A DNA stretch of 64,000 bases, from NCBI RefSeq assembly GCF_013167455.1, contig NZ_CP038328.1, one strand, 5' to 3'. Numbering within the stretch: position 1 is the stretch's first letter; each line of letters begins with the position of its first letter. The notes below the pieces were generated by a model. It did no database searches. It had not been told where the DNA came from and saw nothing but the letters and a program-made list of their open reading frames with translations. Source of the stretch: Escherichia coli O157:H7. Lineage in GTDB: Bacteria; Pseudomonadota; Gammaproteobacteria; Enterobacterales; Enterobacteriaceae. Made by a program: the position numbers and the translations under genes. Positions 5,714 to 21,754 of this stretch are shown piece by piece.

Positions 5714-5757
5714 GATTACCTGTTCTGGATCAATAGATGGGCAGTCGGGTGGGCGGA

Positions 5758-6345: not shown

Positions 6346-6346
6346 A

Positions 6347-7576
6347 TCAGGGCCAACGTTTAATGATGATGGATGTATTAATGCCGCCAAAGGCAAAGTT
6401 GTTACTCTGCAAAAACTCACAATCAACCTTGCGGGCTTCATGCATGATGTAATCCAGCGCGCCACAATTCGGGTCTGGTTTATTCAGGTTTAGCGTAGGC
6501 GCAAACCAACCTTCGCGCATCATTTGCAGACTCATCCAGGCTTCGAGCGCGCCACAGGCACCAAGCGTATGACCAAAATAACTTTTCAGCGAGGAGAGCG
6601 GCACATTATCACCGTAAATGGTTGCTGTCGCCAGACTTTCTGCCATATCACCGCGATCGGTCGCCGTACCATGCGCTGAAATATAGCCGATATCTTGTGC
6701 GCTTAACCCGGCGATTTTCAGCGATTGCTCCATACAATACTGCATGGTTTCGCGCTGCGGCTGGGTAATATGTGCCGCGTCGCAGTTAGTCGCAAAGCCG
6801 ACGATTTCACCGTAAATGGTCGCGCCGCGCGCTTTGGCGTGCTCCAGTTCTTCGAGAATGAGCGTACCTGCGCCTTCACCAATCACCAGCCCGTCGCGGT
6901 TTTCATCGAACGGTGAAGGTGTGGTTTTCGGCGCATCATTGTGCTGGCTGGTGGCGAAAAGCGTATCAAATACCGCTGCTTCTGAAGGACATAACTCTTC
7001 GGCACCACCAGCAACCATCACCGTTTGATAACCGTGGCGAATGGCTTCCCACGCATAACCGATTGCCTGGCTGCCGGAAGTACAGGCGCTGGAGGTTGGG
7101 ATCACCCGCCCGCGCAGGCCGAAAAAGAGGCCAGTATTAACGGCGGTGGTGTGCGGCATCATCTGCACATAGGTGGTGCCAGTGATGTTATTGGTGTGCT
7201 TTTCCGTCAGCATGGTGGCGAACTCGCTTACCGGGCCGGTACTGCCGGTCGATGAACCGTACGCAATGCCCGTTTCGCCGCTGGTTAATATCGGATCGCC
7301 AATCAACCCTGCCTGCTCTAACGCCAGCTCGCTGGCACGGGTCGACATTTGCGACACGCGGCCCATCGCACGGATACGCTTGCGGGTGTAGTGCTCCGGT
7401 AGCGTGAAATCATCAACAGGCGCGCCAAGCAGGGTGTGCAGCCCATCGTAGACCTGCCACTCCGGCATTTTGCGCACCGCATTTTCATATGCCAGTAAGC
7501 GTGCAGAAACGTCCTGCCAGTTTTCACCAAAGGCAGTCACGCCGCCCATTCCTGTAATCACTACGCGACGTGTCAT
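6347..7576 (-). CDS. apeR: Beta-ketoacyl-ACP synthase (FabB/FabF-like elongating KS) of the APE-type cluster
   Basis: 409 aa; active-site SSACTSG Cys plus ISAHGTAT and FGHTLGA His motifs. Ape letter assigned from position in a colinear 17-gene cluster, tentative. Confidence 0.8.
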   Translation of the reverse strand: MTRRVVITGMGGVTAFGENWQDVSARLLAYENAVRKMPEWQVYDGLHTLLGAPVDDFTLPEHYTRKRIRAMGRVSQMSTRASELALEQAGLIGDPILTSGETGIAYGSSTGSTGPVSEFATMLTEKHTNNITGTTYVQMMPHTTAVNTGLFFGLRGRVIPTSSACTSGSQAIGYAWEAIRHGYQTVMVAGGAEELCPSEAAVFDTLFATSQHNDAPKTTPSPFDENRDGLVIGEGAGTLILEELEHAKARGATIYGEIVGFATNCDAAHITQPQRETMQYCMEQSLKIAGLSAQDIGYISAHGTATDRGDMAESLATATIYGDNVPLSSLKSYFGHTLGACGALEAWMSLQMMREGWFAPTLNLNKPDPNCGALDYIMHEARKVDCEFLQSNNFAFGGINTSIIIKRWP

Positions 7577-8304
7577 AACATCCCTCCGTTGATGGAAATA
7601 ACCTGGCGGGTGACGTAACCCGCAATATCAGACATTAAATAGCTGGCAAGCCCGGCAACTTCTTCCGCCTGGCCCATGCGTTTCATGGGGATCATCGACA
7701 TTGCCTCTTTCAGGGCGCTCTCTTCCATTTCGATCATCCCGGTATCAATAAGCCCCGGCGCGATGCAGTTGACGGTGATTTTGCGCTTCGCGAGTTCGAT
7801 AGCCAGCGCTTTTGTTGCGCCGATAATTCCGGCTTTGGCAGCGCTGTAATTCACCTGGCCGCGATTGCCCATTACGCCGGAAACCGAGGATAGCGTGATG
7901 ATGCGCCCACCCTGGCGTGCGCCGATCATCGGCATAATGCACGGCTGAATGACGTTGTAGAAACTGTCGAGGTTGGTGTGGATCACCGCATCCCAGTCGT
8001 CATCGCTTAAAGCCGGAAAAGCGGCATCGCGGGCGATCCCGGCGTTACTGACCACGCCGTACCAGGCACCGTGTTGCGCGATTTCGTGCTCCAGCACTTC
8101 CCGACACTGTTCGCGGTTTGCGACGTCGAAACTGAGCAAACGCCCGTTACCCCCATTGGCGACAATGGCATTCAGCGTTTCCTGAGCGCCTGTGGCGTCA
8201 CGGTGATAGTGAACGCCAATGTTAAAGCCGTCTGCCGCCAGTTGGCAGGCGATGGCGCGACCAATGCCTTTGCTGGCACCAGTAACCAGAACTGAACGAC
8301 TCAT
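7573..8304 (-). CDS. apeQ: 3-oxoacyl-ACP reductase (FabG-like SDR ketoreductase)
   Basis: 243 aa; N-terminal TGASKGIG Rossmann motif and SDR catalytic YSAAK; 4-bp overlap with the downstream KS. Confidence 0.8.
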   Translation of the reverse strand: MSRSVLVTGASKGIGRAIACQLAADGFNIGVHYHRDATGAQETLNAIVANGGNGRLLSFDVANREQCREVLEHEIAQHGAWYGVVSNAGIARDAAFPALSDDDWDAVIHTNLDSFYNVIQPCIMPMIGARQGGRIITLSSVSGVMGNRGQVNYSAAKAGIIGATKALAIELAKRKITVNCIAPGLIDTGMIEMEESALKEAMSMIPMKRMGQAEEVAGLASYLMSDIAGYVTRQVISINGGML

Positions 8305-8768
8305 CAGGACGCTCCTTGTTGAAACAGGGTGGTAAGTTCTTCCGCGGTCGGCTGGAAGGTGTTAATGCGGCCCGTCGCCTCGCCGTCGTTGATGCTGCAC
8401 TCAAAACTGCCGAAGCGATCGTCTTGCATCAGCAGTTTGACGGTAATGGTCAGTGTCTGGCCTGCGGGCAGAATGCCAGTGGTGCAAAGCAATTCACGCG
8501 CGCCCAGTATCATCCCTAACTCAATACTGTTTTTGCCCTGCTGGTGGCGATGCCAGCCAGACCAGACGCCGACGGTTTGCGCCATCAGTTCAAGGGTAAA
8601 CCAGCCGGGGAGATTGCCGTCCGGGTCGAGAAACGGTGCCAGTACGCCACTGGGCGAAACCGTCACGCGGCACACCGCGCTGTCATCGCTGACGCTCACC
8701 ACGTCTTCCAGCAGTAACATGGGCGCGTCGTGGGGCAGATAAGCGCCGGGGGATAAATAGTGGCTCAC
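8304..8768 (-). CDS. apeP: Hotdog-fold 3-hydroxyacyl-ACP dehydratase (FabA/FabZ-like)
   Basis: 154-aa hotdog-sized ORF inside the PKS-like cluster; overlaps neighbours by 1 to 4 bp. Confidence 0.7.
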   Translation of the reverse strand: MSHYLSPGAYLPHDAPMLLLEDVVSVSDDSAVCRVTVSPSGVLAPFLDPDGNLPGWFTLELMAQTVGVWSGWHRHQQGKNSIELGMILGARELLCTTGILPAGQTLTITVKLLMQDDRFGSFECSINDGEATGRINTFQPTAEELTTLFQQGAS

Positions 8769-9943
8769 GAAACCCTCCCGAGCAGAATGCTGGCGTTATT
8801 GCCGCCAAAGGCGAAGGAATTGGACAGGATCACCGGACGTGCCAGCGGCTGCGGTTTTTCGATAATGCCACACGGTGGCAGCGTGGGATCGCGCGGCGAC
8901 AGGCTGAAGTCCTGAGCGGGCAGCGGTAAATCACGCTGTAAAATCAACATACTAATTGCCGCCTCGGTAATGCCCGCTGTGCCCAGCGTGTGTCCGGTCA
9001 AATGTTTGGTGGAGCTGCACGGTACGCGTTCGCCAAACAGGGCGTTAACCACCATTGATTCAATCTGATCGTTGAGTTGTGTGGCGGTGCCGTGCAGGTT
9101 GATATAGCCGACGTCATCTGGCGTAAGCTGCGCATCGGTCAGCGCCTGATTAATAGCGCGGATCGCTCCTTCGCCCTGCGGATGCGGGGCTGAAATATGG
9201 TAAGCGTCGCTCGATTCACCAACGCCCAGCAACGCGATGGGCTGCGGTTCCCGGGTCAGCAGCATTAGCCCCGCCCCTTCACCAATGGTGATACCTGCGC
9301 GGTCACGACCAAACGGCTGACATAAGGTTGGCGACAGCGATTCGAGGCTGTGAAAACCGTTAATCGGCATCCGGCTCAGGGTGTCTGCGCCACCCACAAT
9401 GGCGGCATCGACCAGCCCCGCTTCGATAAGCCTGCGCCCGCTGATTATCGCTCTGGCGCTGGAAGAGCAGGCGGTTGAAAGGGTATAGGCCGGGCCGTCG
9501 AGCGCCAGCCAGTGGCTGAGAAAACGCGACGGATCGCCGAGTTCCTGTTGCGCGTAGTGCCATGTGGTGCTCGGCTGCCCGTGGGTGCGCAGGTTAACGT
9601 GCGTGTCGCCTTCATGCAGGCCGGAGGTGCTGGTACCAAGCACAATCGCAATGCGCTCGCGGCCATATTTCGCAATGGCGTCATCAACCTGCGGCTGGAT
9701 CTGCGCCAGCGCCGCCAGCAGGATCTGATTGTTGCGCGAGCGGTGCGCAGCGAATTTTTCCGGGATAAGCGGAAGCTCGCCATCCACGCCAGCCAGGACC
9801 GCCTGCGGATGCCCCTGCAACCAGCCTGCGCGCGGGCGCATGCCGGGAGCAACACCGCGAGTCAGGTTGGTTGCGATTTCGTCAAGGTTATTTCCCAGGG
9901 CGTTGATCATGCCGACGGCGGAAATATAAATCATATCAGTCAC
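8765..9943 (-). CDS. apeO: Beta-ketoacyl synthase (KS partner of the chain-length-factor-like protein)
   Basis: 392 aa; active-site TACSSS Cys with HGTAT and GHTLG His motifs. Confidence 0.8.
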   Translation of the reverse strand: MTDMIYISAVGMINALGNNLDEIATNLTRGVAPGMRPRAGWLQGHPQAVLAGVDGELPLIPEKFAAHRSRNNQILLAALAQIQPQVDDAIAKYGRERIAIVLGTSTSGLHEGDTHVNLRTHGQPSTTWHYAQQELGDPSRFLSHWLALDGPAYTLSTACSSSARAIISGRRLIEAGLVDAAIVGGADTLSRMPINGFHSLESLSPTLCQPFGRDRAGITIGEGAGLMLLTREPQPIALLGVGESSDAYHISAPHPQGEGAIRAINQALTDAQLTPDDVGYINLHGTATQLNDQIESMVVNALFGERVPCSSTKHLTGHTLGTAGITEAAISMLILQRDLPLPAQDFSLSPRDPTLPPCGIIEKPQPLARPVILSNSFAFGGNNASILLGRVS

Positions 9944-10520
9944 CTAAGTATTGAATGGTGATGTGGTATTTAAAGACATGCTGCTCAATGCTGATTGGCA
10001 CGCGTTTGCCCTTGCGATTCAGATAGGTGATTTCCGTGACCAGTTTGCCGCTGGCGTTACGCAGCTCGCGTTTGTCACCGTTGTCGCGAAGTGTCCATCC
10101 TGCGGGAAGTTGCGGTTGCCAGGCGCTAATCGGCCAGTGGCTGAGCATCACGTCAGCCAGTACCTGACTTGCGGGCGGTAACTGTGGGACGACGATGGAT
10201 TGCTCGGCGCGTAGCCCTTGCGCATCGTAGGTCACCAGAAACAGGCGAATGCCGACCGACGACAGCCCGGCAAGGGTGATTTTCTGATCGTCGGCGTTAA
10301 GCATCACTAACAGCGACTGGGTTTTGCCGTTGAAGCTGCCGGTCAACAGTTGCTGCGAATTGACTGCGGGTGAAATCCCTGGTGCCGGCAGCGTGATGCG
10401 CGTGCCAGGTTGCAGCCACGCCTGCGGGCGGCCTTCCTGTTCTGGTTGCGAGTGGCTACAGCCGGTGAGGATAAGCGTAGCGGTCAGGGCGAACGCTCGC
10501 CAGAATGTGGATTTGATCAT
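9936..10520 (-). CDS. apeN: Lipoprotein of the APE export module (DUF3261-like)
   Basis: 194 aa; signal peptide with lipobox LTGC; sits between the MMPL exporter and a KS. Confidence 0.65.
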   Translation of the reverse strand: MIKSTFWRAFALTATLILTGCSHSQPEQEGRPQAWLQPGTRITLPAPGISPAVNSQQLLTGSFNGKTQSLLVMLNADDQKITLAGLSSVGIRLFLVTYDAQGLRAEQSIVVPQLPPASQVLADVMLSHWPISAWQPQLPAGWTLRDNGDKRELRNASGKLVTEITYLNRKGKRVPISIEQHVFKYHITIQYLGD

Positions 10521-12835
10521 TTTTTTGTTCTCTTTTTATCGGGCATAGCCAGCGGCGAAAGCAGGAAGGCGGTGAAAATACCGCTCACCAGCACAATGCC
10601 AAAACTGCTGATGGCCTGGGTGGCGCTGAATACCAGCATACCCAGCGTCAGCAAGGTGGTGAGCATTGCCAGCGCGATCGCCAGTAGCGAAGTTAACGGT
10701 GTACCGCGCGGATTACTGAAAAACAGCGTGTAGTTGATACCGATGCCAAGCACCAGCACCAGCGCCAGCAGCGAAAAGAGATTCACCGCCTGCCCGCTCA
10801 TCGCCAGCACCGCCAGACCACAGCCCAGCGAAAGCACCGAAGGCACCAGGCTGATAAGCCCTTTGCGCCAGCCGAGACGGGCCACTGCGCCGCAGGCAAT
10901 CACTGCCAGCGCCACCAGCAACAAGCCGGTTAAGACGTAGCGGTAAAGTGCGAACAATTCATCAAAGGTGCTTTTGCGATCAACCCAGGCAATGCCGCAA
11001 GGGTAATATGTGGCGATTTCCTGCATCAACGCGCTACTTTTAACCCCTTCAACCGGCACCAGTACGCCGCTTTCGCCGTTTTCCAGCGTCAGCCACAGCA
11101 GACGCCAGCCTTCACTGGCGGGGCTTGCCAGCCATTCATCAACGTTCACTGGCATGGCGTTGAGATCCGGGTTCACTGCCGTCAGCCCGGCATTTTGCAG
11201 CGCTTTTGTTACTGTCGGGGCCGCCGTTTTCAGCAGTTGTAAATCTTCCTCCTGCCGCGCAAGGGAGTTCAGCGGAATGGTGCGGTAGTTGCTGATAAGC
11301 CCCTCTTTTTTCGCATACTCAAGTGAGGCGGTATATTTCTCCAGTCGCCGCAATGTTTGCTGTGGCGAATCGCCGTAAACCACAAACCATTTTTGATCGA
11401 CGCTCTGCCCGGTCAGGGCGGTAATGGCTTTTTCCTGCGCCAGAATATGCTGCGGTAGCGCCTGTAACTGCGAGATATCGTCATCGACGCGTAGCATTGA
11501 CATCCCCGCCAGCGAAAACAGCGCCAGCGCGACGGGCAGACCCAGCGACAGTTTTTTATTACGCCGCCACGCTGCCAGCCAGCGTAGCATCAGCGCCATC
11601 GCCGGAACCGGACGCACCGGCAGGCCACGGCACAGCCACGGATGCCAGAACAGGACGGTCAGACAGGAGGCGCTCAACCCGACGGCGGCAAAAATCGCCA
11701 TCTGGCGAATGCCGGGGAAGGGGGCGAGCATCATAATCAGATACGCCGCCACGGTGGTGAGCAGCGCCAGTAGCAAGGCATTGCGTACTTTCGCCAGGCT
11801 TTGCCACGGCGAAACGTCGTTGCCGTGAACCATCCGCTCGGTGAGATAATAGAGCGTGTAGTCAGCGGAAATGCCGATAACGCTCATGCTCATCACCAGC
11901 GTCATCAGGTGTAATTCACCGAAAATCAATAAAGTGGCGACCGTTCCCGCCAGCGCGCCGATGCCGATGGAAATCACGCAAAGCAGCAACGGGCGTAAAG
12001 AGCGGAACACCGCCACAATCAGCAATATCACCCCCAGCAGCGTAGCCACGCCCAGGGTGGAGATATCCTGCTTCGCCTGTTGGCTGGCGTAATCGCTGTA
12101 AAACACCGTGCCGCGCGAGAGCAACTGTGCCTGCGGGTAACGCGTTTTCAGATCCTTTTCCAGCGTATTCAGGGTCGTGATCAGCTGGTGGGTTTGCTGC
12201 ATATCAAACGACGATCCCGCCAGTTCGCCGTGCAGCAGATACCAGTAGTTGCCCTGGGGATCCTGCGTCACCAGCCAACCGTCCATCAGCCGCAAACGCT
12301 GGCCGTTTTTCGCCATTGCCAGCTGCGAGCCGCGCATTAACATCAGCGGATCGTTTTGCAGCTCCTTGCCGCTTACGCCGGAGAATGCGGAATAAAGCTG
12401 GGAGAGGATCCACTGTGCCTGCGCTTCGCCGCCGTTTTGCAGGCGGGCGCGGGTGTTGGGGTCAATCAGGCCGTTGCGATGCTGCCAGAAAAACGCTCCC
12501 CACGCCTGCTGGCTGGCGGCATCCATTGGCCCTTTAACGTCGCCGAGCGCAGCGGATTTTTGCAGCAGCGTCAGCCACTCCTGAGCGACCAAAGGATTAG
12601 CCTCTTTACCGGGGCTGACCAGCCACACCAGTTGGCGGTCAAGACGCTGCATAAAGCCGTCATTCAGCGCCGGAGGAATATCGCCCATCGTCTGTTTGGG
12701 TAACATAGCCAGCACGCTACTGTTCAGCCGTGATTGCGGCAGCAGGATCAGCAACGCCACCGCCATGACCAGGCAGACTAGCCCCCATAACAGCGCGGGG
12801 CGTTTACTGGGCGGCAAAACGTTGGCGTTCGTCAT
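10517..12835 (-). CDS. apeM: MMPL/RND-family membrane exporter
   Basis: 772-aa polytopic protein with two hydrophobic bundles separated by a large soluble loop, the typical MMPL layout. Confidence 0.75.
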   Translation of the reverse strand: MTNANVLPPSKRPALLWGLVCLVMAVALLILLPQSRLNSSVLAMLPKQTMGDIPPALNDGFMQRLDRQLVWLVSPGKEANPLVAQEWLTLLQKSAALGDVKGPMDAASQQAWGAFFWQHRNGLIDPNTRARLQNGGEAQAQWILSQLYSAFSGVSGKELQNDPLMLMRGSQLAMAKNGQRLRLMDGWLVTQDPQGNYWYLLHGELAGSSFDMQQTHQLITTLNTLEKDLKTRYPQAQLLSRGTVFYSDYASQQAKQDISTLGVATLLGVILLIVAVFRSLRPLLLCVISIGIGALAGTVATLLIFGELHLMTLVMSMSVIGISADYTLYYLTERMVHGNDVSPWQSLAKVRNALLLALLTTVAAYLIMMLAPFPGIRQMAIFAAVGLSASCLTVLFWHPWLCRGLPVRPVPAMALMLRWLAAWRRNKKLSLGLPVALALFSLAGMSMLRVDDDISQLQALPQHILAQEKAITALTGQSVDQKWFVVYGDSPQQTLRRLEKYTASLEYAKKEGLISNYRTIPLNSLARQEEDLQLLKTAAPTVTKALQNAGLTAVNPDLNAMPVNVDEWLASPASEGWRLLWLTLENGESGVLVPVEGVKSSALMQEIATYYPCGIAWVDRKSTFDELFALYRYVLTGLLLVALAVIACGAVARLGWRKGLISLVPSVLSLGCGLAVLAMSGQAVNLFSLLALVLVLGIGINYTLFFSNPRGTPLTSLLAIALAMLTTLLTLGMLVFSATQAISSFGIVLVSGIFTAFLLSPLAMPDKKRTKK

Positions 12836-13409
12836 CGGTCAGTTGCGCTGGCGTCAGTTGATGTTGGGTAAGAGCAATATCGGTGCGATCGCCCTGTTTA
12901 TCATTAAGTTGAATGCTCTCCAGATAGGTTTTCCCGGCGAGATCGATGGTGTTGAAAATTTTATCCAGCGGCGTGGTGGTCGGCGTCAGGCGCAGCGTCC
13001 AGCGGCCTTCGCCTTTGTCAGCAAATTCGACGCGGAAGTTTTGTTCCAGCACTTTGCGATCGGCCTGGAACAACGCGCGCAGCAGGTGGTTAAACTGGAA
13101 CATCTGCGGGTTGTTTTCTGCCGTGATGATTTGCGGCGGCTGACCGTTGATCACCTGCACCATGCGTTTATCGTCCAGTAATAGTTGCATGGGGAACGGT
13201 GAGGTTTGATCCCACAACAGCCCCTGGTCGCGGGCGATCAACATCTGGCCCTGAGATCGCAGCGGCTGCGGCAGATCTTTAATCGTCCGGGTTTGATCGA
13301 AATGGGCGCGGATCACCGGTTGTTCGGTAAAGCGTTGCTGAAGATCGTCCAGGGTCAGGGCGCTCACAAACGGGCTAATCAGCAGCGCCAGCAGCGGTAA
13401 AAATTTCAT
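12804..13409 (-). CDS. apeL: LolA-like outer-membrane lipoprotein carrier protein
   Basis: 201 aa with signal peptide; size and position match the LolA-like component of APE clusters. Confidence 0.65.
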   Translation of the reverse strand: MKFLPLLALLISPFVSALTLDDLQQRFTEQPVIRAHFDQTRTIKDLPQPLRSQGQMLIARDQGLLWDQTSPFPMQLLLDDKRMVQVINGQPPQIITAENNPQMFQFNHLLRALFQADRKVLEQNFRVEFADKGEGRWTLRLTPTTTPLDKIFNTIDLAGKTYLESIQLNDKQGDRTDIALTQHQLTPAQLTDDERQRFAAQ

Positions 13410-13828
13410 GGTTTGACTCCCATGCGTTCAAACAGAATATCGGGGCTGACAAAGCACAGTTCGCGACTTTGCTCGTCGACCGCGACCTGAATGGTGTATC
13501 CGGTGGTGGCGCGTTTGCCCGTTTCGGCATCGAAAATCTGATAGCCAATCCGCAGACGGTTTTCGAACTCTTCGATATGCGCACGCACGCGGATGCGTTG
13601 CTCAAAGGTGAGGGCGTGGCGATATTTCACCCGCGCATCGACCACTGGCCACAAATAACCGGACTCTTTCATTTGCCGATAGCCGTAATTGAACTGGTTG
13701 AGCAGCGCCTCGCGAGCCACTTCAAAGTAGCGAAAATAGTTACCGTGCCAGGCCACGCCCATCATATCGACGTCGTGAAAGGGAATGGTCAGCTCGACTT
13801 CTGCGGTAAATCGGGGATCGTTCAGCAC
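13406..13828 (-). CDS. apeK: Hotdog-fold acyl-CoA/acyl-ACP thioesterase (4HBT-like)
   Basis: 140-aa small thioesterase-sized ORF, translationally coupled (ATGA overlap) to the next gene. Confidence 0.65.
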   Translation of the reverse strand: MLNDPRFTAEVELTIPFHDVDMMGVAWHGNYFRYFEVAREALLNQFNYGYRQMKESGYLWPVVDARVKYRHALTFEQRIRVRAHIEEFENRLRIGYQIFDAETGKRATTGYTIQVAVDEQSRELCFVSPDILFERMGVKP

Positions 13829-13831
13829 CCT

Positions 13832-15508
13832 TTACTCCTTGTCCTGAATTTCCGGCAGTTGCCAGAAATCGAAAAAATTAAACCAGTCGAGAGGCGACTG
13901 GAGCGCGTAATGTTCCAGACGCGCGGCGTAATGATCGATAGCGTTTTGCAGCGCCTGTTGGCGTTCGCCGCGCGGCAGCTGCAGTGGGTCGGCAAAGCTT
14001 TCGCAGTGAATATGCAGCTTGCCGTGCTGGCGCAGGGCGAAAATCAGATTCACCGGGCAGCGCAAAATAGAGGCGAGAATAAACGGCCCCTGTGGGAAAG
14101 GCGCAGGCTGGCCCATAAACGAACTCCAGCAGACGCGCCAGTCGCCGCCGCGTTGCGGGTTGACGGCGATGCGGTCACCGACAATCGCCACCCATTCGCC
14201 GTTATCCAGCTTCTCTTTCAGCAGGATGGCGGTTTCTGGGCCGATATCTGTTACCGGCATCAGGTTAATGCCTGCCTGAGGAGCCATCTCCTGCATTATC
14301 TGTTTAAAGCGTTGGGCGTTTTCGCTAAACACCAGCGCGTTAATGGTTTTGTAGCCCTGAATTTTTGCCAGCGCCCGGCACACTTCCACATCGCCAAGAT
14401 GCGAGGCCAGCAGCAATTTGCCGCGCGGATCGCGGACGTCAAGCGCTGCTTCTGCGCCTGGCGCAAACAGCACATCACGCCCTGGTTGTAGCTCGCCGCG
14501 CCAGCTGGCGATTTTGTCGAGCATGGCATTACCGAAACGTAGAAAGTGCTGATAGCTGTTGAGTTTTGCCGCCTGTGGTTGATGCTGTCGTACACGGGCG
14601 AGCCAGTCTTGCGACGCTTTGCGCGCACGAGAAGCAGTGAGCCAGTAGACGCCCACCACCGGGTAAAGCAGCGCGCTAAACGCCGTTCTTCCCAGCAGAC
14701 GCCAGACCAGCAGCATCAGGCGCATTCCCCATAATCCTTTCACTTCACTCTGCCGCGCCCAGTGGCAGGAAGAGCGGCGCATCAGCAGTGAAGGAATACG
14801 CGGCAACATGCCGAAAAACAGACGCGTGTGCATGAGCGAGATGCGGACGTTATCTTTCAGGGCATCAAAATGCGAAAGCCCGTCCAGTGGATAGGTGACG
14901 CGGGTCGGCACGAAATAGCTGGTATTTCCCTGCCAGTAGAGGCGCACCATCACTTCGGTGTCGAAATCCATCCGCTTGCCGATGGTGGCGTGTTTTGCCA
15001 GTTGCAGCGTTGGCGCAACCGGATAAACGCGAAAACCGCACATGCTGTCTTTCAGTTGCAGGGAGAGCGTTTCGATCCATACCCAGACGTGGGTGACCCA
15101 GCGCCCGTAAAGCCGTGAGCGGGGGATGGAGTCATCGTAAATTGGCTGGCCGGAGATCAGTGCCGCAGGTTGTTGTTCAGCGAGAGCCAGCAGTTTAGGG
15201 ATATCTTCAATCGCGTGCTGACCGTCAGCATCCACCTGCACCGCATGGCTGAACCCTGCGTCTGCCGCTGCCTGTAAGCCACGCATCACCGCCGCGCCTT
15301 TGCCTGCGTTTTCTGCCAGGCGAATTAAGGTCACGCCAGGCTGTTCGGCAAGCAGACTGTCCAGTTGCTGTTGTGTGGTGGCATCGCTGCCGTCATCCAC
15401 CACAATACAGGGCAGATTAAATGGCTTAAGACGCGCCAGCACGCCCGGCATCATCGCGCCGTGGTTGTAGCAGGGTATCAACACGCAGGGAGAAAAGTTT
15501 ACCGACAT
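13832..15508 (-). CDS. apeJ: Bifunctional family-2 glycosyltransferase / acyltransferase
   Basis: 558 aa; N-terminal GT2 motif VVDDGSD, followed by a membrane segment and a C-terminal acyltransferase-like domain. Confidence 0.7.
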   Translation of the reverse strand: MSVNFSPCVLIPCYNHGAMMPGVLARLKPFNLPCIVVDDGSDATTQQQLDSLLAEQPGVTLIRLAENAGKGAAVMRGLQAAADAGFSHAVQVDADGQHAIEDIPKLLALAEQQPAALISGQPIYDDSIPRSRLYGRWVTHVWVWIETLSLQLKDSMCGFRVYPVAPTLQLAKHATIGKRMDFDTEVMVRLYWQGNTSYFVPTRVTYPLDGLSHFDALKDNVRISLMHTRLFFGMLPRIPSLLMRRSSCHWARQSEVKGLWGMRLMLLVWRLLGRTAFSALLYPVVGVYWLTASRARKASQDWLARVRQHQPQAAKLNSYQHFLRFGNAMLDKIASWRGELQPGRDVLFAPGAEAALDVRDPRGKLLLASHLGDVEVCRALAKIQGYKTINALVFSENAQRFKQIMQEMAPQAGINLMPVTDIGPETAILLKEKLDNGEWVAIVGDRIAVNPQRGGDWRVCWSSFMGQPAPFPQGPFILASILRCPVNLIFALRQHGKLHIHCESFADPLQLPRGERQQALQNAIDHYAARLEHYALQSPLDWFNFFDFWQLPEIQDKE

Positions 15509-15852
15509 AGGCGGATCTTCCCGCTACTGGCGGTGTGGCGGGCGTCACCGTCGTGACGCTGATAGCTAAAGCTCAGAATCTGGCGTTCTTCCTGCCAGTT
15601 AAGCGCGAGCGTGACGCGGTTTTCCGGCAGCAACGGAGACTGGAATTTTATGTTCTGAATGGAGTGAAAACGCCAGCCAGGCGCGAGCAGATTGAGCGCG
15701 TAGCTCATCGCCCAGTCGATTTGCGCAACTCCTGGGAGTAATGGTTGCACGGCAAAATGACCGCGAAACCAGAACAGATCCGCCCTGAGATGCAGAACAA
15801 TTTCAAGGTGATTCGTTTGTGCCTGATGGCGCTCGATTTCATGGGGCTTCAT
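15499..15852 (-). CDS. apeI: Hotdog-fold dehydratase (second DH subunit)
   Basis: Start set at the ATG at 15852, which has an AGGAG ribosome-binding site 9 nt upstream, giving 117 aa. The ORF track extends it to 15882. Confidence 0.65.
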   Translation of the reverse strand: MKPHEIERHQAQTNHLEIVLHLRADLFWFRGHFAVQPLLPGVAQIDWAMSYALNLLAPGWRFHSIQNIKFQSPLLPENRVTLALNWQEERQILSFSYQRHDGDARHTASSGKIRLCR

Positions 15853-17200
15853 GAAATAACTCCTGTAATTGCGCATAGACACGCTTGTTCATACTGTTTA
15901 CTGGCATTTCATCAATAACGCGCCAGTAACGCGGAATAGCAACTGGCTCCAGCGTCGGGCGCAGTAAACGCCGCCAGGTCATTTCCTGGCTATGCCCGCC
16001 GCCGTTCTGCCATTGCAGATGAGCTTCGTCATCCAGCACCAGCAAAACGCCTATGCTCTGACGCCCGCCGCGCGTAACGGGAACTGCCGCCGCCTCGCGA
16101 ATGCCGTCCAGCGCCAGTAGACGTTGTTCTACTTCCTGGAGTGAAATACGTTTTTCTTCAATCTTAACGATGCGCCCACGACGCCCCATCAGATGGAACT
16201 GACCATCTTCGCTAAACTGTAAGATATCGTCGAGTAACATGCCGTTATCTTCCGCTATCAGCGGTGAAAAGAGGCGAAAGGCATCGCCTTCGGCCTGGAA
16301 CTGCATACCTGGGAGGGGTAGCCAGCGGCGTTGCTCTTGTTCGCGGTAGCGCCAGGCGATGACGCCAGTTTCCGTGCTGCCGTAGATTTCATCAGGCCAG
16401 ACGCGCAGCCAGCTCGCGGTATGTTGTACATCCTGCCACGGCAGCTCACCGCCAGCAGAGAGAAGCACCTGAACGGGTGGCGGAGAAAGCTGGGTATCCA
16501 GGCGCTTCAAAAATGCCGGGCTGCTGATGAAGATATAGCGATGCTGATGACTCAACGCGGCAAACTGTTCGACATACCAGAGCATGGCGGCGTGCAGCGG
16601 TAATCCCAACGCCATGGGCAGGAAAACGCGAAAAGTCAGGCCGTACAAATGCTGCGGCAATACGGAACCGACGACACGACAACCCGCCAGACGTGCGCCT
16701 AATCGTTCAGCCAGCAGTTCTGCTTCACGATCCAGCAAATGAACAGGTTTAATCGCCCGTTTCGGCTGTCCCGTGGAACCGGAGGTAAACAGCTCGATAA
16801 AAGCCTCTGGCGCTATAGCGGCAAAGGTGAAGGATTGTGTCGCGATTTGTGGAGAACTTGCTACCAACAGCAATGAACCTTGCCAGTTAAGTTCGCTGTC
16901 GCTAAGCACACCATCAAAAAGTTCACGTTGCTCGTTAAGCTGGATAACACGGTTATGCCCCGGAAGCACCGGCGTTTTTCCGGCGTGTAGCGTGGCGAGC
17001 AGGGCAACGATAAACAGATAGCTGTTCTCAAAGCACAGCGCCCAGCGTTCACCCGGCTGTTGCTGCAAGCGGCAGATAAGTTGCGCGACATCGTGACGCA
17101 AATCGCCCAGCGTCCAGGTACTTTCGTTCAGCCACGCAATGGGTGTGTCATCAGGGCGTGGCGCAGTCAGCCAGCGTGCAAGCGGTAAGGTCTGCTTCAT
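15839..17200 (-). CDS. apeH: AMP-dependent synthetase/ligase (adenylating starter-unit ligase, acyl-ACP synthetase-like)
   Basis: AMP-binding motif TSGSTGQPK; start placed at the ATG at 17200, which forms an ATGA overlap with the upstream gene's stop, giving 453 aa. Confidence 0.8.
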   Translation of the reverse strand: MKQTLPLARWLTAPRPDDTPIAWLNESTWTLGDLRHDVAQLICRLQQQPGERWALCFENSYLFIVALLATLHAGKTPVLPGHNRVIQLNEQRELFDGVLSDSELNWQGSLLLVASSPQIATQSFTFAAIAPEAFIELFTSGSTGQPKRAIKPVHLLDREAELLAERLGARLAGCRVVGSVLPQHLYGLTFRVFLPMALGLPLHAAMLWYVEQFAALSHQHRYIFISSPAFLKRLDTQLSPPPVQVLLSAGGELPWQDVQHTASWLRVWPDEIYGSTETGVIAWRYREQEQRRWLPLPGMQFQAEGDAFRLFSPLIAEDNGMLLDDILQFSEDGQFHLMGRRGRIVKIEEKRISLQEVEQRLLALDGIREAAAVPVTRGGRQSIGVLLVLDDEAHLQWQNGGGHSQEMTWRRLLRPTLEPVAIPRYWRVIDEMPVNSMNKRVYAQLQELFHEAP

Positions 17201-17778
17201 GCGCGATCTCTTTTCATCACCTGACGGCGCAGCAGCCATTCACCAGCCATTAACGTCCCCATCAACAAATAAGCAATCATGCCGTTCCAGGCGGTCCATA
17301 ACGACATATCGGCATAAAGCGCGGTAAAGAGGGCAATTCCACCGTTAATGATGAAAAAGCCGCACCAGATTTGCGTGACGTGGCGGGTATAGCGCACGCC
17401 CTTTTCCGGGAGGTCTGGCTCCTGCAACCGCGCCAGCCGCTCAACTATCGGCATTGCCGACCACAGCGAACCGCCAAAAACCGCCAGCATGACCGCGTTA
17501 ACCACTACCGGGTAAAACAGCAGTAGCTGGTGCGTTTTCAACATAAAGCTGGCGACACATAATGCGATGCCCACGACAGCGACGAGTTGCGTGACGGCTT
17601 GTAAAGGCCCCGCCTGGCGACGGGTCTGGCGCAGACGCAACAAAAGCAGCAACGCCATTAGCGGTAACAGCCAGTGCAGGCCGTTATGCGCTAAGCCAAA
17701 CCAAATCACAAACGGCCAGGCGAGCAGCAATAATCCAGTCAGCAGCTTAATCATCGGTAGCGAGCGAATGCCCGACAT
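17197..17778 (-). CDS. apeG: Integral membrane protein of the APE cluster
   Basis: 193 aa with about 5 predicted transmembrane helices. Confidence 0.6.
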   Translation of the reverse strand: MSGIRSLPMIKLLTGLLLLAWPFVIWFGLAHNGLHWLLPLMALLLLLRLRQTRRQAGPLQAVTQLVAVVGIALCVASFMLKTHQLLLFYPVVVNAVMLAVFGGSLWSAMPIVERLARLQEPDLPEKGVRYTRHVTQIWCGFFIINGGIALFTALYADMSLWTAWNGMIAYLLMGTLMAGEWLLRRQVMKRDRA

Positions 17779-17782
17779 CAGA

Positions 17783-18034
17783 TCAGGCTTCTTGTAGCAG
17801 GCGTTCTACAGCCTCGACGACATCCTGGACTGTACGCACTGCTTTAAACTCTTCCGGCTTGATTTTCTTACCGGTTTTCTTTTGCAGGTGCACAATCATG
17901 TCAACGGCGTCGATGCTGTCCAGTTCCAGATCTTCGTACAGGCGCGTTTCAGGTTTGATGTCCTGCGGATCGATTTCAAACAGCTTAACCAGCAGGGCTG
18001 AGACTTCCTGATAGACGGTTTGTTGTTCTGTCAT
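17783..18034 (-). CDS. apeF: Acyl carrier protein
   Basis: 83 aa; phosphopantetheine attachment motif LELDSIDAVDM; GAGGAA ribosome-binding site upstream. Confidence 0.85.
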   Translation of the reverse strand: MTEQQTVYQEVSALLVKLFEIDPQDIKPETRLYEDLELDSIDAVDMIVHLQKKTGKKIKPEEFKAVRTVQDVVEAVERLLQEA

Positions 18035-18045
18035 GATGGCTTTCC

Positions 18046-18303
18046 TCAGGCACGTTGCGCAGCAATGAAAGAGGCCAGAGTGGCGACGGAGAAAAAGTGC
18101 TGACGCATCTCTTCGCTTTCCGCAGAGAGCACGATGCCGTACTCATTTTTTACTGCCAGTCCCAGTTCCAGGGCATCGATAGAGTCCAGCCCTAAACCGT
18201 CGCCAAACAGCGGCGCGTCGGTATCGATATCATCAGGCGTCAACTCGTCCAGATTGAGGGTGCTGATGATGAGGTTTTTAATTTCCAGATAAAGCGCTTG
18301 CAT
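18046..18303 (-). CDS. apeE: Acyl carrier protein
   Basis: 85 aa; motif LGLDSIDALEL; AGGA ribosome-binding site upstream. Confidence 0.85.
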   Translation of the reverse strand: MQALYLEIKNLIISTLNLDELTPDDIDTDAPLFGDGLGLDSIDALELGLAVKNEYGIVLSAESEEMRQHFFSVATLASFIAAQRA

Positions 18304-19099
18304 TATTTATTCCTGAGAGAGGTAAACAACCTTGTTGTAATTGAAGCAAAAGATGCCGGTTTAACTGCCTTGCTGCCAGCGCCGGTTCTTGTGAAGTTGC
18401 ATCGTAAAATTTATTGATTTCAACCCGACCATGGACTGCAACCGTAAAAAACGGCCGGTCAGGTGGAACGTCATACCATTTACTTTGTTTATCCAGCAGA
18501 TGCTCGCTACAGCCGATTGTCACGATGCGTAAATCGCTGGCGCAGCGCACGGCAATATTCGCCGCCCCGCGCTGCAGCGTCATTTTTTCACCGGGCTTCG
18601 TTCGTGTGCCTTCGGGGAAAATCAGGATAGTGTCACCCTGTGCCAGTCGCTGTTGGCAGCGGGGTAACAGAGTTTCAGCTTCGCTGTTGATTAAATAATC
18701 TGTCGCCCGCACGACGCCGCCAAGAAAAGGATTTTTTAACAGCGCGCTTTTCACCAGGCAGTCAGTTTCTGGCATGACTGACGCCAGCAGCACGTAATCG
18801 ATCAGCGTGGGATGATTGGCTACGACGAGGCAACCGCGTTCCTGATGTAAGATTTCAGCGCCATCAATACGATAATCCAGTACGCCAAGCCCTTTCGCGA
18901 CAGTTAAAAACAGGCGAAAACTGGCGGCAATGCTGCGACGCGCCAAACGACGGCGGCGGGAAGTATCCCACACCAAAACTAACAATATGTTAAACCACAC
19001 GACAGAAAGCAGCAGGCCGCCGAGACCAAACAGGGCAAAACATAACCCGGTCATGACCAGTCGCCAGGTCCACTCCAGACGTGACATCAGCTTACTCAT
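18278..19099 (-). CDS. apeD: Lysophospholipid (PlsC-type) acyltransferase
   Basis: N-terminal membrane anchor and acyltransferase-sized body; start placed at the ATG at 19099 (ATGA coupling with the upstream stop), giving 273 aa. Confidence 0.7.
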   Translation of the reverse strand: MSKLMSRLEWTWRLVMTGLCFALFGLGGLLLSVVWFNILLVLVWDTSRRRRLARRSIAASFRLFLTVAKGLGVLDYRIDGAEILHQERGCLVVANHPTLIDYVLLASVMPETDCLVKSALLKNPFLGGVVRATDYLINSEAETLLPRCQQRLAQGDTILIFPEGTRTKPGEKMTLQRGAANIAVRCASDLRIVTIGCSEHLLDKQSKWYDVPPDRPFFTVAVHGRVEINKFYDATSQEPALAARQLNRHLLLQLQQGCLPLSGINNASALSGN

Positions 19100-19818
19100 C
19101 TGTGGCTCCAGCGCCATTGCACGCGCTCGCCAGGCAGTGAAAATGTGTCTACATTTTGTAAATAGTGCTGTAAAAACAACATGCTTTGCGGCAGTGTTGT
19201 TTCATTGCCCGCAATGGCTGACTGCGTTTCACATTGCCAGTCATCGCCAGCTTCAATCACCAGCGCGACGGCGTACGGCCAGGTCGGCATTTCTGATGGC
19301 AGTTGTGGGTGATAAAACTCGGGCAGGAAACCGTCAAAATCGACCATCAGCACGCGCTGGTATCCCGCTTGTAGCAGGCTAAGCACTTCACACAAACCTT
19401 GCTGGAAACTATCGCGACCAGCCGAAAGCGATGACGAAACGCTCGGCTGTTTGGCCGCAATGGTCAGGTTACCCACGGAAGAGTTGTGTACGGAGAGCGC
19501 GAAGTCCGTCGGAGAAAGCGCCTGTTCGGTTGCCAGTGCATGAACAATGCGGTAATTGCGCTCCAGTTCGCCATGACGACTGGTATACAAAACGGCGTCT
19601 GGTTGATGGCGGCGTAGCATTGCCAGACCGCATTCAACAGCCAGTTTGCTCCCGGAGCTGAGGCGGCGGGCGGTCATCATTGGCAGTTCACTTAATTTTG
19701 CCAACGGTGCTGTCGGGTCAATTGCCTGAGGCTGACGTGACCACTCCTGCCATTGCAGCGTTTCACTAAGTCCAGGCGCTCTTGCCTGCCAGTCGAGAAT
19801 GTTTAATGCAAATTTCAT
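19096..19818 (-). CDS. apeC: KS-like protein lacking the active-site Cys (chain-length-factor-like KS partner)
   Basis: Ketosynthase-like by cluster context, but no Cys/His/His triad is visible. Start ambiguous: ATG at 19818 (240 aa) or TTG at 19842 (248 aa). Confidence 0.6.
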   Translation of the reverse strand: MKFALNILDWQARAPGLSETLQWQEWSRQPQAIDPTAPLAKLSELPMMTARRLSSGSKLAVECGLAMLRRHQPDAVLYTSRHGELERNYRIVHALATEQALSPTDFALSVHNSSVGNLTIAAKQPSVSSSLSAGRDSFQQGLCEVLSLLQAGYQRVLMVDFDGFLPEFYHPQLPSEMPTWPYAVALVIEAGDDWQCETQSAIAGNETTLPQSMLFLQHYLQNVDTFSLPGERVQWRWSHR

Positions 19819-19858
19819 CAACGCGCGCCCGCGGTAAACCAAAATTATTAAGTGACGA

Positions 19859-20926
19859 TTATTTCTTTTGGCATATCAAAAGTGTATGCCCAACGCCTAA
19901 ATTATCGTGGCGCTCTGCTACCTGGAATCCTGCTTTATTCAGATAGTCGTAAAATTTCTCTGCACTATAGAAACGGCTGTTACCGTTTGCCATGCAGGTA
20001 AAATAAAGTGAGGACGCGTTCAGGCTAAACGATGCTGCTTCAAACCGCTGCGCATCCCAGAACAACTCCATGATGCAAACTTTTGCGCCAGGCTTCATTA
20101 CGCTGGCAATTTTGCTGAGTATGCTAATTATTTGTTCGGGTGAAAAACAGTCTAAAAATTGGCTCATCCACCAGATATCAGCCTCGCCCGGTAATGGGGC
20201 ATCGCTTAGCATATCCACCGCATGGAAATCTATGCGATCAGAAAAACCTGCATTCGCGATATTTTCTTTCGCTAGTACGATTTGTTGTGGCAGATCTAAT
20301 AACGTAACGGCGATGTTTTCATTGTATTTGCAGCAACGCAAAGCCCACTTACCCGTATTGCCGCCTACATCGTACAATGTTGTGGGGTTGTTGGCGAATA
20401 CATAAGGCAGTGCGGCGTTAAATGCGCCATCTGAATAGTAATGATCAAACGCAAACCAGCTTTCACGAGCGGCGTCTGGTAATTGCGAAAGTGCCGGATA
20501 TATCGTCGACCAGTCGCCAAATACTTTTAACCCGGAAGGTTTTCCTTCATTGAGTGAATCGGCGAGGAAGAAGAGCCCCTGGTAACAGACATCCTGGGTG
20601 AAATCCATATTCACGCGAGTCATAGTGTCATGCAGGAGGTAATGACCGATTTTCGCCAGGTAATAAATTCCCTCTTTACAGGTAATAATTCGCCCGCTTA
20701 AGCCCATATCTAACAGAACGCTGGTAGCATATTCGTTGATATGGCTATGTTCGGTGATATCAGCCAGCGTTGCGCCATGTTTGCCTTGCCGATCCAGATA
20801 TGAAAGTACACCCGCATTACGTAGGCAGAGTGCTGTTTGAAAAAGCATAGGGGCAAAGGCAATGCGTTGAGCTTCGGTAATCGCATCCAGTGCGCTAAGA
20901 GAATCCTGTTCGTACATGTTGGGCAC
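19859..20926 (-). CDS. apeB: Class I SAM-dependent O-methyltransferase
   Basis: 355 aa; SAM-binding motif LYDVGGNTG; first gene of the 17-gene block. Confidence 0.8.
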   Translation of the reverse strand: MPNMYEQDSLSALDAITEAQRIAFAPMLFQTALCLRNAGVLSYLDRQGKHGATLADITEHSHINEYATSVLLDMGLSGRIITCKEGIYYLAKIGHYLLHDTMTRVNMDFTQDVCYQGLFFLADSLNEGKPSGLKVFGDWSTIYPALSQLPDAARESWFAFDHYYSDGAFNAALPYVFANNPTTLYDVGGNTGKWALRCCKYNENIAVTLLDLPQQIVLAKENIANAGFSDRIDFHAVDMLSDAPLPGEADIWWMSQFLDCFSPEQIISILSKIASVMKPGAKVCIMELFWDAQRFEAASFSLNASSLYFTCMANGNSRFYSAEKFYDYLNKAGFQVAERHDNLGVGHTLLICQKK

Positions 20927-20985
20927 AACCTGTTAAGAGGGAATTAAATTATTATCGGACCGCAACGGCCCGACTTTAGGAAGAA

Positions 20986-21375
20986 TTATAAATCTGCGCC
21001 CGCTGACAAATTCAGTTGAATATCTTTGTCGAGATTGCGGACCCAGCGATTGTAGTTTTTATGAATTTGTCCGCCTGACGCTTGTAGGTTCTGGCTATTT
21101 TCATAATTGATATCGTAGCTGGATGCCGTGTAGTTAATGCGTATTTCCGCTGAATGATCGCGTGACTGTTGACGTGCTTTAATTATGCCTTGTCCGGCTT
21201 CGGACATAATCCATTTGCGTTCAACGCCAGCTTTCAGAATCGCTTTTTTCACTTGTTCCTGGGTATGACCAGCGCTGACGGTTGAGTGAACCTGATCAAT
21301 TGGCGCAGTACGCGCGCAACCTGCTAAAGCACCCACAACAGCAATAGCCGCAAACCATTTCATGTAATGTCTCAT
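20986..21375 (-). CDS. Small secreted lipoprotein, function unknown (possibly the first gene of the APE operon)
   Basis: 129 aa; signal peptide with lipobox LAGC; GGGG ribosome-binding site; sits between the AT-rich region and the methyltransferase gene. Confidence 0.55.
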   Translation of the reverse strand: MRHYMKWFAAIAVVGALAGCARTAPIDQVHSTVSAGHTQEQVKKAILKAGVERKWIMSEAGQGIIKARQQSRDHSAEIRINYTASSYDINYENSQNLQASGGQIHKNYNRWVRNLDKDIQLNLSAGADL

Positions 21376-21704
21376 TAGAACCCCATTAAAGTATTGTTTT
21401 TACGAGTAAAGCAAGTTTTAACTGTAATTGCTGGCATCACTATTCTTTATTTAGAGAAAAAATTACTTGTGAGATAAGTCAGTAAGTGCACATCAGAGTA
21501 AAAATCTCTGAAATGACTAAATTACTGCCAGCAGGGACCAACTATAAGTGAGTGAGAAAAATGAGGCAATAAAAATAACACAATGTTATCAGTGCATTCT
21601 TTGAGAAGGATTTAATCGCTATTCGGCGTTTATATATATTTGACTTAAGGAATGGTTTTTTTAAATTAATTTTCTGAATAATGTTTCATCATTTCCTCAA
21701 ATCA

Positions 21705-21735: not shown

Positions 21736-21754
21736 GCCTGCTCAGGAGGTGCTA

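Follow-up and report, generated by a model that had tools for sequence, protein, structure and literature searches.

Gene content of the acpT-yhhT interval

The window, a stretch of 64,000 nucleotides from Escherichia coli O157:H7 that is 100% identical to O157:H7 genomes, carries 18 minus-strand genes (apeA to apeR, 6347-21375) between acpT and yhhT, according to RefSeq, which annotates an identical O157:H7 genome, and to the list of open reading frames (ORFs). These sources, together with the gene junctions, bear out the coordinates, strand, colinearity and tight packing given in the initial annotation. Its count of 17 genes has to be raised to 18. ApeG, a membrane protein of COG4648 type (17197-17778), and ApeA, a small lipoprotein with the lipobox LAGC (20986-21375), had been left out, and the ketosynthase/chain-length-factor (KS/CLF) pair plus two more ketosynthases reduce to three KS-fold proteins: the ketosynthases ApeR and ApeO and a truncated CLF, ApeC. 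Six junctions are 4-nt ATGA or GTGA overlaps, the remaining overlaps measure 1, 10, 14, 26 and 32 nt, and the gaps separating genes measure 1, 3, 4, 11, 40 and 68 nt. The ORFs are free of internal stops, and all catalytic motifs checked (Cys/His/His, ACP serine, HX4D, SDR and adenylation) are present.

Two ketosynthases are assigned to chain elongation. ApeR (6347-7576) is a FabB/F-like homodimeric ketosynthase predicted to act in early or short polyene elongation (NF006587, 778 bits, cutoff 470); it retains Cys165 (SSACTSG), His302 (AHGTAT) and His336 and is 99.8% identical to ApeR of E. coli CFT073. ApeO (8765-9934; NF006618, 557 bits, cutoff 407; Cys156, His281 and KHLTGH; 99.5% identity to CFT073) is the ketosynthase that would elongate the chain in partnership with ApeC (19096-19818), a truncated chain-length factor matching PF13723 (Ketoacyl-synt_2, E=1.1e-66), named "beta-ketoacyl synthase chain length factor" in RefSeq and lacking the active-site Cys/His KS motifs. 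ApeQ (7573-8304) is a 3-ketoacyl-ACP reductase (FabG2; TIGR01831, 476 bits, cutoff 339) with the motifs TGASKGIG, NAG and YSAAK and 99.2% identity to CFT073. Two hotdog dehydratases with weak FabZ matches are encoded: ApeP (8304-8768; RefSeq "ApeP family dehydratase"; 98.7% identity to CFT073) and ApeI (15499-15852), whose orthologues are named "ApeI family dehydratase" in RefSeq and which is only 71.8% identical to its CFT073 counterpart. ApeF (17783-18034; NF003757, 144.5 bits, cutoff 65; serine motif ELDSI) and ApeE (18046-18303; NF006617, 90.8 bits, cutoff 70; serine motif GLDSI) are acyl carrier proteins, the latter being the predicted starter carrier. The aryl starter would be placed on ApeE by the adenylating enzyme ApeH (15839-17200), which matches adenylate-forming families, carries TSGSTGQPK and YGSTE and retains 68 of the 69 positions conserved to 90% or more among 75 other ApeH sequences; its identity to CFT073 ApeH is only 66.2%.

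The remaining proteins are assigned to tailoring, attachment and export. ApeB (19859-20917) is a predicted SAM-dependent methyltransferase of the aryl head group that scores 473 bits, below the cutoff of 560, against the FlxJ-family model NF053543 and is 94.3% identical to CFT073. ApeK (13406-13828), a 4HBT/YbgC-type thioesterase (TIGR00051, E=1.3e-16), is 100% identical to its CFT073 counterpart and shares its WP accession. ApeD (18278-19099; 96.7% identity to CFT073) is a PlsC/lysophospholipid acyltransferase with a TIGR00530 domain (E=1.7e-15) and HX4D at H96. In ApeJ (13832-15508; 96.8% identity to CFT073), an N-terminal GT2 domain (PF00535, residues 8-130 only) is followed by an uncharacterised C-terminal stretch of ~300 aa, which is named an acyltransferase in the literature and for which a PDB search returned no sequence relative. 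ApeG is polytopic, hydrophobic throughout and 80.8% identical to CFT073; it had no match in Pfam or NCBIfam, and its E500002 orthologue is named "COG4648 family protein" in RefSeq. ApeM (10517-12835; 96.4% identity to CFT073) is an MMPL/RND-family exporter ("MMPL family transporter" in RefSeq) whose matches to the HAE3, HpnN and MMPL families all fall below the cutoffs. ApeL (12804-13409; 99.5% identity to CFT073) is a LolA-like periplasmic carrier (TIGR00547, LolA, E=1.6e-16; flexirubin LolA2 model, E=8.7e-15), and ApeN (9936-10520; RefSeq DUF3261; lipobox LTGC; 96.9% identity to CFT073) is a LolB-like DUF3261 lipoprotein. ApeA, the product of the cluster's first gene, has a signal peptide in addition to its lipobox and is 63.6% identical to CFT073 ApeA; its start lies at 21375 rather than at the 21363 of RefSeq, as an ATG and ribosome-binding site conserved across genera align there. 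On the same strand, 1 nt past the apeR stop codon (TGAtATG), acpT (5758-6345) encodes a group II 4'-phosphopantetheinyl transferase (NCBIfam NF007676, 395.9 bits, cutoff 174) and can be counted, by function, as the unit's 19th gene.

This gene content and order, described from the outset as of aryl-polyene (APE) type, equal those of apeA-apeR in CFT073, an APE cluster characterised by experiment (Johnston 2021, Table 1). We read 5758-21375 as a chromosomal operon for APE biosynthesis, lipid attachment and export (O-island 138), with acpT, which encodes its cognate phosphopantetheinyl transferase, as its last gene, at an ancestral locus lost from K-12-type strains, and assign this reading a probability of about 0.9. 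The O157:H7 cluster is already known, as O-island 138 or ECs_4324-4341, and its detection by antiSMASH as an APE cluster in strain Sakai (ECs_4324-ECs_4341) has been published (PMC9205054). The present additions are modest, comprising its frequency in E. coli, its ancestral state, the scar in K-12 and the mosaic nature of the CFT073 copy.

Distribution and probable loss of the locus

The ape genes occupy the acpT site in ~566-590 of 5426 complete E. coli genomes (~10%), and ~5% of the complete genomes carry a copy elsewhere. As stated in the initial annotation, yhhT lies beside acpT in K-12, the two being 54 bp apart in K-12-type genomes. Alignment to K-12 delimits the block as an indel from 6366 to ~21759 (15.39 kb), and comparison of the junctions shows this segment (6366-21759) to be replaced by 35 nt of unrelated filler. 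Upstream of acpT, the final 19 nt of apeR survive as a relic in K-12-type genomes (6347-6365, minus strand; ...IKRWP and stop); other genera conserve both this C-terminus of ApeR (KRWP/KRWA) and the TGAnATG junction. Neither the ape cluster nor other genera contain a source of the filler; therefore, the loss in K-12-type genomes was not a clean deletion. A single old deletion of 15.4 kb probably removed the genes from the majority of E. coli, K-12 among them, and left acpT orphaned.

A spacing of a few nucleotides between apeR and acpT recurs in more than 20 loci from ~12 other Enterobacteriaceae genera, and acpT also follows apeR, more distantly, in Hafnia and Yersinia. The yhhT gene lies immediately upstream of ape in at least 14 loci, and Superficieibacter has the complete yhhT-ape-acpT-nikA arrangement. 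The yhhT-apeA..R-acpT-nik locus is probably ancestral in Enterobacteriaceae. Because many enterobacterial genera share the yhhT-ape-acpT order and K-12-type genomes still carry the 3' end of apeR, the block is accessory, as initially proposed, in being variable within E. coli, through loss from K-12-type strains and not through insertion. Since other Escherichia species have no representative genomes among the best 80 ape loci, it is possible that homologous recombination across its conserved flanks brought the cluster back.

The opposite polarity, in which the O157 lineage gained a genomic island horizontally between acpT and yhhT and the K-12 site is the ancestral empty state, is improbable. 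It would accommodate the ~10% frequency at the site, the GC content of 55.3% against ~52% elsewhere in the window, and the mobility implied by the integrase-bearing island that houses the CFT073-type copy. However, the apeR coding end retained at the empty site and the identical synteny across many genera argue against it, and the GC of the cluster exceeds that of its flanks in nearly every genus; 55.3% GC is therefore a trait of the cluster family. Between strains of phylogroups E and D (O157 and 042), the dS of the ape genes (0.119) is similar to that of the flanking core genes acpT (0.076) and yhhT (0.115). Mobility genes and target duplications are likewise absent, annotation and a repeat check having revealed neither an integrase, a tRNA or an IS element at the locus nor direct repeats at its flanks.

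The CFT073 cluster (APE_Ec; apeA-apeR, c1204-c1186; Cimermancic 2014, Johnston 2021) has the same 18 genes, order and overlaps as that of O157, with 92-100% identity for 14 of the encoded proteins. Unlike the O157 copy at the core acpT-yhhT site, however, it lacks an adjacent PPTase gene. The acpT-site cluster is set apart from the CFT073 type by an apeI-apeH-apeG cassette (15580-17400, minus strand), in which nucleotide identity falls to 54-73%, against 92-100% on either side (100-nt windows); the O157 version of the cassette is common to E. coli 042 and E500002. The end comprising the 5' part of apeB, apeA and the promoter also differs sharply. The CFT073 copy is a relocated mosaic.

Upstream region and expression

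The intergenic region upstream of apeA (21376-21754) is AT-rich (42% GC), poorly conserved between genera and the presumed site of a promoter on the minus strand. It contains one sigma-70-like match (21569-21541), the number of such matches not being above chance, and a hairpin immediately past the yhhT stop codon (21705-21735; -22.2 kcal/mol, z -2.2). O157:H7 is not known for visible pigmentation, and native ape expression may for this reason be low. Z4853 and Z4854, putative acyl carrier protein genes of O157:H7, presumably encode the O-island 138 carrier proteins. Their induction on host epithelia (2.2-2.5-fold) has been published, as has induction of cluster transcripts on spinach roots.

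The absence of a dedicated regulator, promoter-like matches at chance frequency in AT-rich DNA and the loss of the cluster from most E. coli lineages might suggest a silent or decaying remnant that is now functionless in O157:H7. We consider this quite unlikely, as none of the 18 ORFs is disrupted and their catalytic motifs are present, dN/dS over all ape genes is 0.09 (O157 versus strain 042), conservation of the cluster among many O157:H7 genomes is 100%, and its transcripts are reportedly induced on epithelial cells and spinach roots.

Predicted product and related systems

The product could alternatively be an unusual fatty acid or an ordinary membrane lipid in modified form. O-island 138 was first annotated for "fatty-acid biosynthesis", and the best named matches of many of its proteins are FAS II families (FabF, FabG2, FabZ, ACP and PlsC). 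This reading is highly improbable, however, given the APE features of the cluster (truncated PF13723 CLF, stand-alone starter-adenylating enzyme, lack of an enoyl reductase and O-methyltransferase-like ApeB) and the APE pigment obtained by heterologous expression of the near-identical CFT073 cluster (PMC8253772). Because ApeH, ApeI, ApeG and ApeA are just 64-81% identical to their CFT073 counterparts, the two products can only be presumed equivalent.

For this O157:H7 strain, a pathway to an aryl polyene can be outlined from the literature on homologues and from domain predictions. AcpT would convert apo-ApeE and apo-ApeF into their holo forms, an activation reported in vitro for the O157 homologues, as cited in PMC8253772. 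As shown for Xenorhabdus, ApeH would adenylate 4-hydroxybenzoate (from UbiC) and load it directly onto ApeE. On the model of the Xenorhabdus and Acinetobacter homologues, ApeR and the ApeO:ApeC KS:CLF heterodimer would then extend the chain with malonyl units, with reduction by ApeQ and dehydration by ApeI/ApeP in each round, to give a conjugated hexaene. CFT073 genetics and domain predictions suggest that ApeB methylates the ring, that ApeK acts in acid release or proofreading, that ApeD and ApeJ join the acid to a lipid anchor, and that ApeG, ApeM, ApeL, ApeN and ApeA take the lipid to the outer membrane.

The O157 cluster shares its enzyme folds and iterative logic with type II FAS (FabF/FabG/FabZ/AcpP) but differs from it in its adenylation-loaded aryl starter, CLF partner and own attachment and export module, as well as in having no enoyl reductase. 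The flexirubin and xanthomonadin clusters are related aryl-polyene pathways, and the FlxB, FlxJ and LolA2 models match O157 proteins significantly, at scores below the curated cutoffs (FlxJ, 473 against 560; LolA2, 54.6 against 125; FlxB, 266 against 340, with FabG2 scoring higher); unlike those clusters, that of O157 lacks both a DarA/DarB dialkylresorcinol module and a halogenase. An in vitro reconstitution has been reported for the APE cluster of Xenorhabdus doucetiae (Grammbitter 2019, cited in PMC8253772). Five loci from related species of Xenorhabdus match O157 in their apeA-R gene set and order, with protein identities of 45-83%; unlike in O157, acpT does not lie downstream of apeR. Crystal structures are available for the ApeO-ApeC and ApeR ketosynthases of Acinetobacter baumannii (PMC8358021), which are distant orthologues of the O157 enzymes, likened to them by design and motif: both systems combine a heterodimeric KS:CLF with a FabB-like homodimer and share the motif that holds the active-site Cys.

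Gene organisation and predicted products of the aryl-polyene locus

Aryl polyenes, lipids of the outer membrane, have been linked to protection from oxidative stress and to the formation of biofilms. The aryl-polyene (APE) locus, apeA–apeR, comprises 18 consecutive minus-strand genes at 6347–21375, according to both the ORF list and the genes annotated by RefSeq on an O157:H7 chromosome of 100% identity, and is flanked by acpT (5758–6345) and yhhT (21755–22804). None of the 18 genes contains an internal stop. Neighbouring genes overlap by 4 nt (ATGA or GTGA) at six junctions and by 1 to 32 nt at five further ones, and the other gaps measure 1, 3, 4, 11, 40 and 68 nt. The apeR stop codon is followed after 1 nt by the acpT start codon on the same strand; thus, acpT is positioned as a nineteenth cistron. 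Its product, a group II PPTase, scores 395.9 bits against the AcpT equivalog model NF007676 (cutoff 174), and its position would allow co-transcription with the genes of its carrier proteins. The initial annotation was right about the coordinates and strand and in describing a polycistronic unit. It counted 17 genes instead of 18 and four ketosynthases where three ketosynthase-fold proteins are present, and two products, ApeG (a membrane protein) and ApeA (a lipoprotein), are absent from its inventory. In RefSeq, O157 apeA begins at 21363; an ATG at 21375 aligns with the start codon and RBS conserved in other genera and also agrees with the 129-aa apeA annotation in CFT073. The longer form, starting at 21375, is probably correct.

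Products were assigned from NCBIfam, Pfam and motif checks; the names apeA to apeR follow the order of transcription. The ketosynthase ApeO (NF006618, 557 bits; Cys/His/His) is paired with ApeC, a truncated chain-length factor (PF13723, E=1.1e-66) without catalytic residues, and a second, FabB/F-like ketosynthase, ApeR, scores 778 bits against NF006587 (cutoff 470) and carries a Cys-His-His triad (C165, H302 and H336). The tandem carrier proteins ApeE and ApeF, both above the NCBIfam cutoff, possess a phosphopantetheine-accepting serine in the motifs GLDSI and ELDSI, respectively. ApeH, with its adenylation motifs present, including the P-loop TSGSTGQPK, is predicted to adenylate the aryl starter as a stand-alone enzyme. 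The ketoreductase is the FabG2 reductase ApeQ (TIGR01831, 476 bits), and the two hotdog dehydratases are ApeP and ApeI, each designated a dehydratase by its RefSeq name; no enoyl reductase was found among the 18 cluster products. The attachment and export module is intact throughout, consisting of ApeD, a PlsC-type acyltransferase (LPLAT) with an HX4D motif; ApeJ, in which a GT2 domain is joined to a C-terminal half without assignment; the polytopic membrane protein ApeG (COG4648); the LolA-like protein ApeL; the MMPL transporter ApeM; and the DUF3261 lipoprotein ApeN (lipobox LTGC). The remaining products are the lipoprotein ApeA (lipobox LAGC), the methyltransferase ApeB and the thioesterase ApeK. 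A PDB sequence search with the C-terminal 315 aa of ApeJ gave no match, and a Pfam search of ApeA and ApeG returned nothing significant.

The gene order is that of the experimentally validated cluster of CFT073 (c1204–c1186), with protein identities of 64–100%. The O157 gene list matches the published apeA–apeR list of that strain exactly (PMC8253772, Table 1), bearing out the APE gene content and order that had been claimed for this block. A flexirubin-type cluster can be dismissed, as FlxJ (473 against a cutoff of 560), FlxB (266 against 340), LolA2 (54.6 against 125) and DarB (22 against 550) all score too low and no DarA/DarB dialkylresorcinol module was recovered.

Z4853 and Z4854 are presumably the carrier proteins of O-island 138. 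These O157:H7 carrier-protein genes are induced on host epithelia (PMC2654852). The cluster itself is O-island 138, an island that distinguishes EHEC lineages (PMC3893438), and the same block is ECs_4324–ECs_4341 of O157 Sakai, where antiSMASH calls an APE cluster (PMC9205054). The cluster is already known and its O157:H7 copy catalogued; confirmatory or incremental additions are the exact junctions, the relic of apeR, the synteny across genera and the mosaic relation to CFT073.

Ancestry of the locus and the K-12-type state

Among 5426 complete E. coli genomes, 840 carry an aryl-polyene cluster of any kind. Matches over at least 80% of the query, flanks included, occur in 566 of the 5426 and the CFT073 type, at another site, in 254, while about 587 records match the window with an identity of 95% or more. 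Every example examined at this last level of identity (H1–H4, L005 and L006) is located between acpT and yhhT. In K-12-type genomes, acpT and yhhT lie 54 bp apart and the segment equivalent to window 6366 to ~21759 is absent. The block is accessory, as the initial annotation held, in the sense that K-12-type genomes lost it from an ancestral locus, not that O157 gained it by insertion.

The empty site retains the last 19 nt of apeR (IKRWP plus stop), followed by a TGAtATG junction with acpT, and both the ApeR C-terminus and this junction are conserved across many other genera. In a cross-genus survey using ApeJ as query and one genome per species, acpT was located a few nucleotides past apeR in Citrobacter, Superficieibacter, Raoultella, Leclercia, Lelliottia, Enterobacter, Pluralibacter, Kosakonia, Kluyvera, Cedecea and others. 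At the opposite end, yhhT lies immediately 5' of apeA in at least 14 loci, and the complete yhhT-ape-acpT-nikA order was found in Superficieibacter. Between O157 and strain 042, the ape genes have a dS of 0.119, close to the values of 0.076 and 0.115 for the core-gene flanks, and a dN/dS of 0.09.

Two readings would instead make the cluster a newcomer. Its GC content of 55.3% might be taken as a sign of foreign origin; however, in hosts from Gilliamella to Aeromonas the cluster nearly always exceeds its flanks in GC content, and the value is therefore no evidence of recent import. A mobile genomic island is likewise rejected, as integrase or transposase genes, a tRNA or attachment site and direct repeats are all missing and synteny is conserved across genera. 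Neither the annotation nor a repeat search turned up an integrase gene, tRNA gene, IS element or flanking repeat at the cluster, and the search for island-boundary repeats gave no flanking direct repeats, only short matches such as chance would produce.

Taken together, the apeR relic, the cross-genus synteny, the flank-like dS, the lack of mobility features and the host-wide GC excess show, at the level of genome comparison, an ancestral locus from which the K-12-type state arose by deletion. This reading agrees with the claim in the title of De Lay and Cronan (2006), as cited in PMC8253772 and PMC4103896, and provides a sequence-level demonstration that the orphan acpT of K-12 results from deletion. 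At the K-12-type junction, 35 nt (2866–2900 of L002, a K-12-type locus) stand in for the cluster; searches of the cluster and of 80 related loci found no match to this filler.

Mosaic relation to the CFT073 cluster

The cluster proteins of CFT073 and Nissle 1917 are identical (same WP accessions). Fourteen O157 proteins are 92.5–100% identical to these counterparts, and the four lower identities are those of ApeG (81%), ApeI (72%), ApeH (66%) and ApeA (64%). Nucleotide divergence is limited to two sharp-edged blocks. The first (window ~15580–17400) is the apeI-apeH-apeG cassette, with 54–73% identity, and the second runs from window ~20700 past the cluster end to 21754, covering the apeB-5'/apeA/promoter end. 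Outside these blocks, the two clusters are 95–99% identical. The O157 version is shared by other acpT-site copies, namely those of E. coli 042 and E500002.

The divergence of apeI-apeH-apeG is explained by a putative allelic cassette replacement. The closest relative of the CFT073-type ApeH outside E. coli, from an unclassified Enterobacteriaceae bacterium, is only 87% identical, so the donor of the cassette is evidently unsampled. The O157 and CFT073 ApeH alleles each retain 68 of the 69 positions with a conservation of 90% or more among 75 ApeH proteins from other genera, a pattern that gives no sign of lost or altered predicted chemistry.

The genomic settings also differ. The CFT073 copy is relocated, on an integrase-bearing island beside a pseudogenised garD and a hemagglutinin gene, whereas the O157 copy has the gene for the activating enzyme AcpT in cis. 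In a combined reading, the acpT-site cluster would be the ancestral enterobacterial locus and the CFT073 cluster a relocated mosaic, its starter-loading and dehydratase cassette (apeI-apeH-apeG) and promoter end replaced from an unsampled lineage, and, since the choice of aryl starter falls to an enzyme of that cassette, the O157-type aryl polyene could differ chemically from the one characterised so far or be regulated differently; we give this reading as a whole roughly one chance in ten. Extrapolation from CFT073 to O157:H7 should take into account that identity is only 64–81% for four proteins, among them ApeH, which selects the starter, and that acpT lies in cis in O157.

In strain CFIAFB20190167 (L004 2482–2580), a 79-nt remnant of the 3' end of apeR adjoins a cobalamin riboswitch and btuB and carries the annotation 'beta-ketoacyl-ACP synthase IV' pseudogene; it apparently stems from the decay of an island-borne copy of the cluster.

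Proposed pathway and flanking signals

A pathway can be proposed whose steps are all drawn from homologue literature or domain predictions. AcpT would activate ApeE and ApeF; such activation of the O157 carrier proteins has been reported in vitro, as cited in PMC8253772. As in Xenorhabdus, ApeH would adenylate 4-hydroxybenzoate and load it onto ApeE, and the polyene would be built by ApeR, ApeO:ApeC, ApeQ and ApeI/ApeP, as shown for the Xenorhabdus and Acinetobacter homologues. On the basis of CFT073 genetics and domain-based proposals, ApeB would methylate the ring, ApeK would release the acid, ApeD and ApeJ would join it to a lipid, and ApeG, M, L, N and A would mediate export to the outer membrane. 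A yellow aryl-polyene product, as carboxylic acid or lipid, has been demonstrated for the CFT073 copy only (PMC8253772), and oxidative-stress protection and more biofilm are the published phenotypes of that cluster. ApeB, ApeA or both are without a match in many enterobacterial APE loci (L012, L017–L022, L028, L039, L043, L074 and others), belonging to Raoultella, Lelliottia, Enterobacter, Pseudocitrobacter, Kluyvera and Cedecea; unmethylated head groups are predicted in these genera.

A scan for promoter and terminator consensus sequences gave counts not clearly over those of shuffled controls, so no promoter could be assigned. When sequences upstream of apeA from different genera were aligned, no conserved operator emerged, conservation being limited to the RBS and start codon, and an Rfam scan of window 5000–23500 gave no matches. 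A hairpin at window 21705–21735 (-22 kcal/mol, z -2.2), immediately 3' of the stop codon of yhhT and with a weak U-tract behind it, is missing from the K-12-type junction with its 54-bp yhhT-acpT spacing; transcription of acpT may therefore differ between the cluster-bearing and K-12-type states. Between acpT and nikA, an inverted repeat at window 5677–5720 holds GTATGA-N16-TCATAC, which we take to match the NikR operator of the nik operon; this repeat is an ordinary feature with no connection to the cluster.
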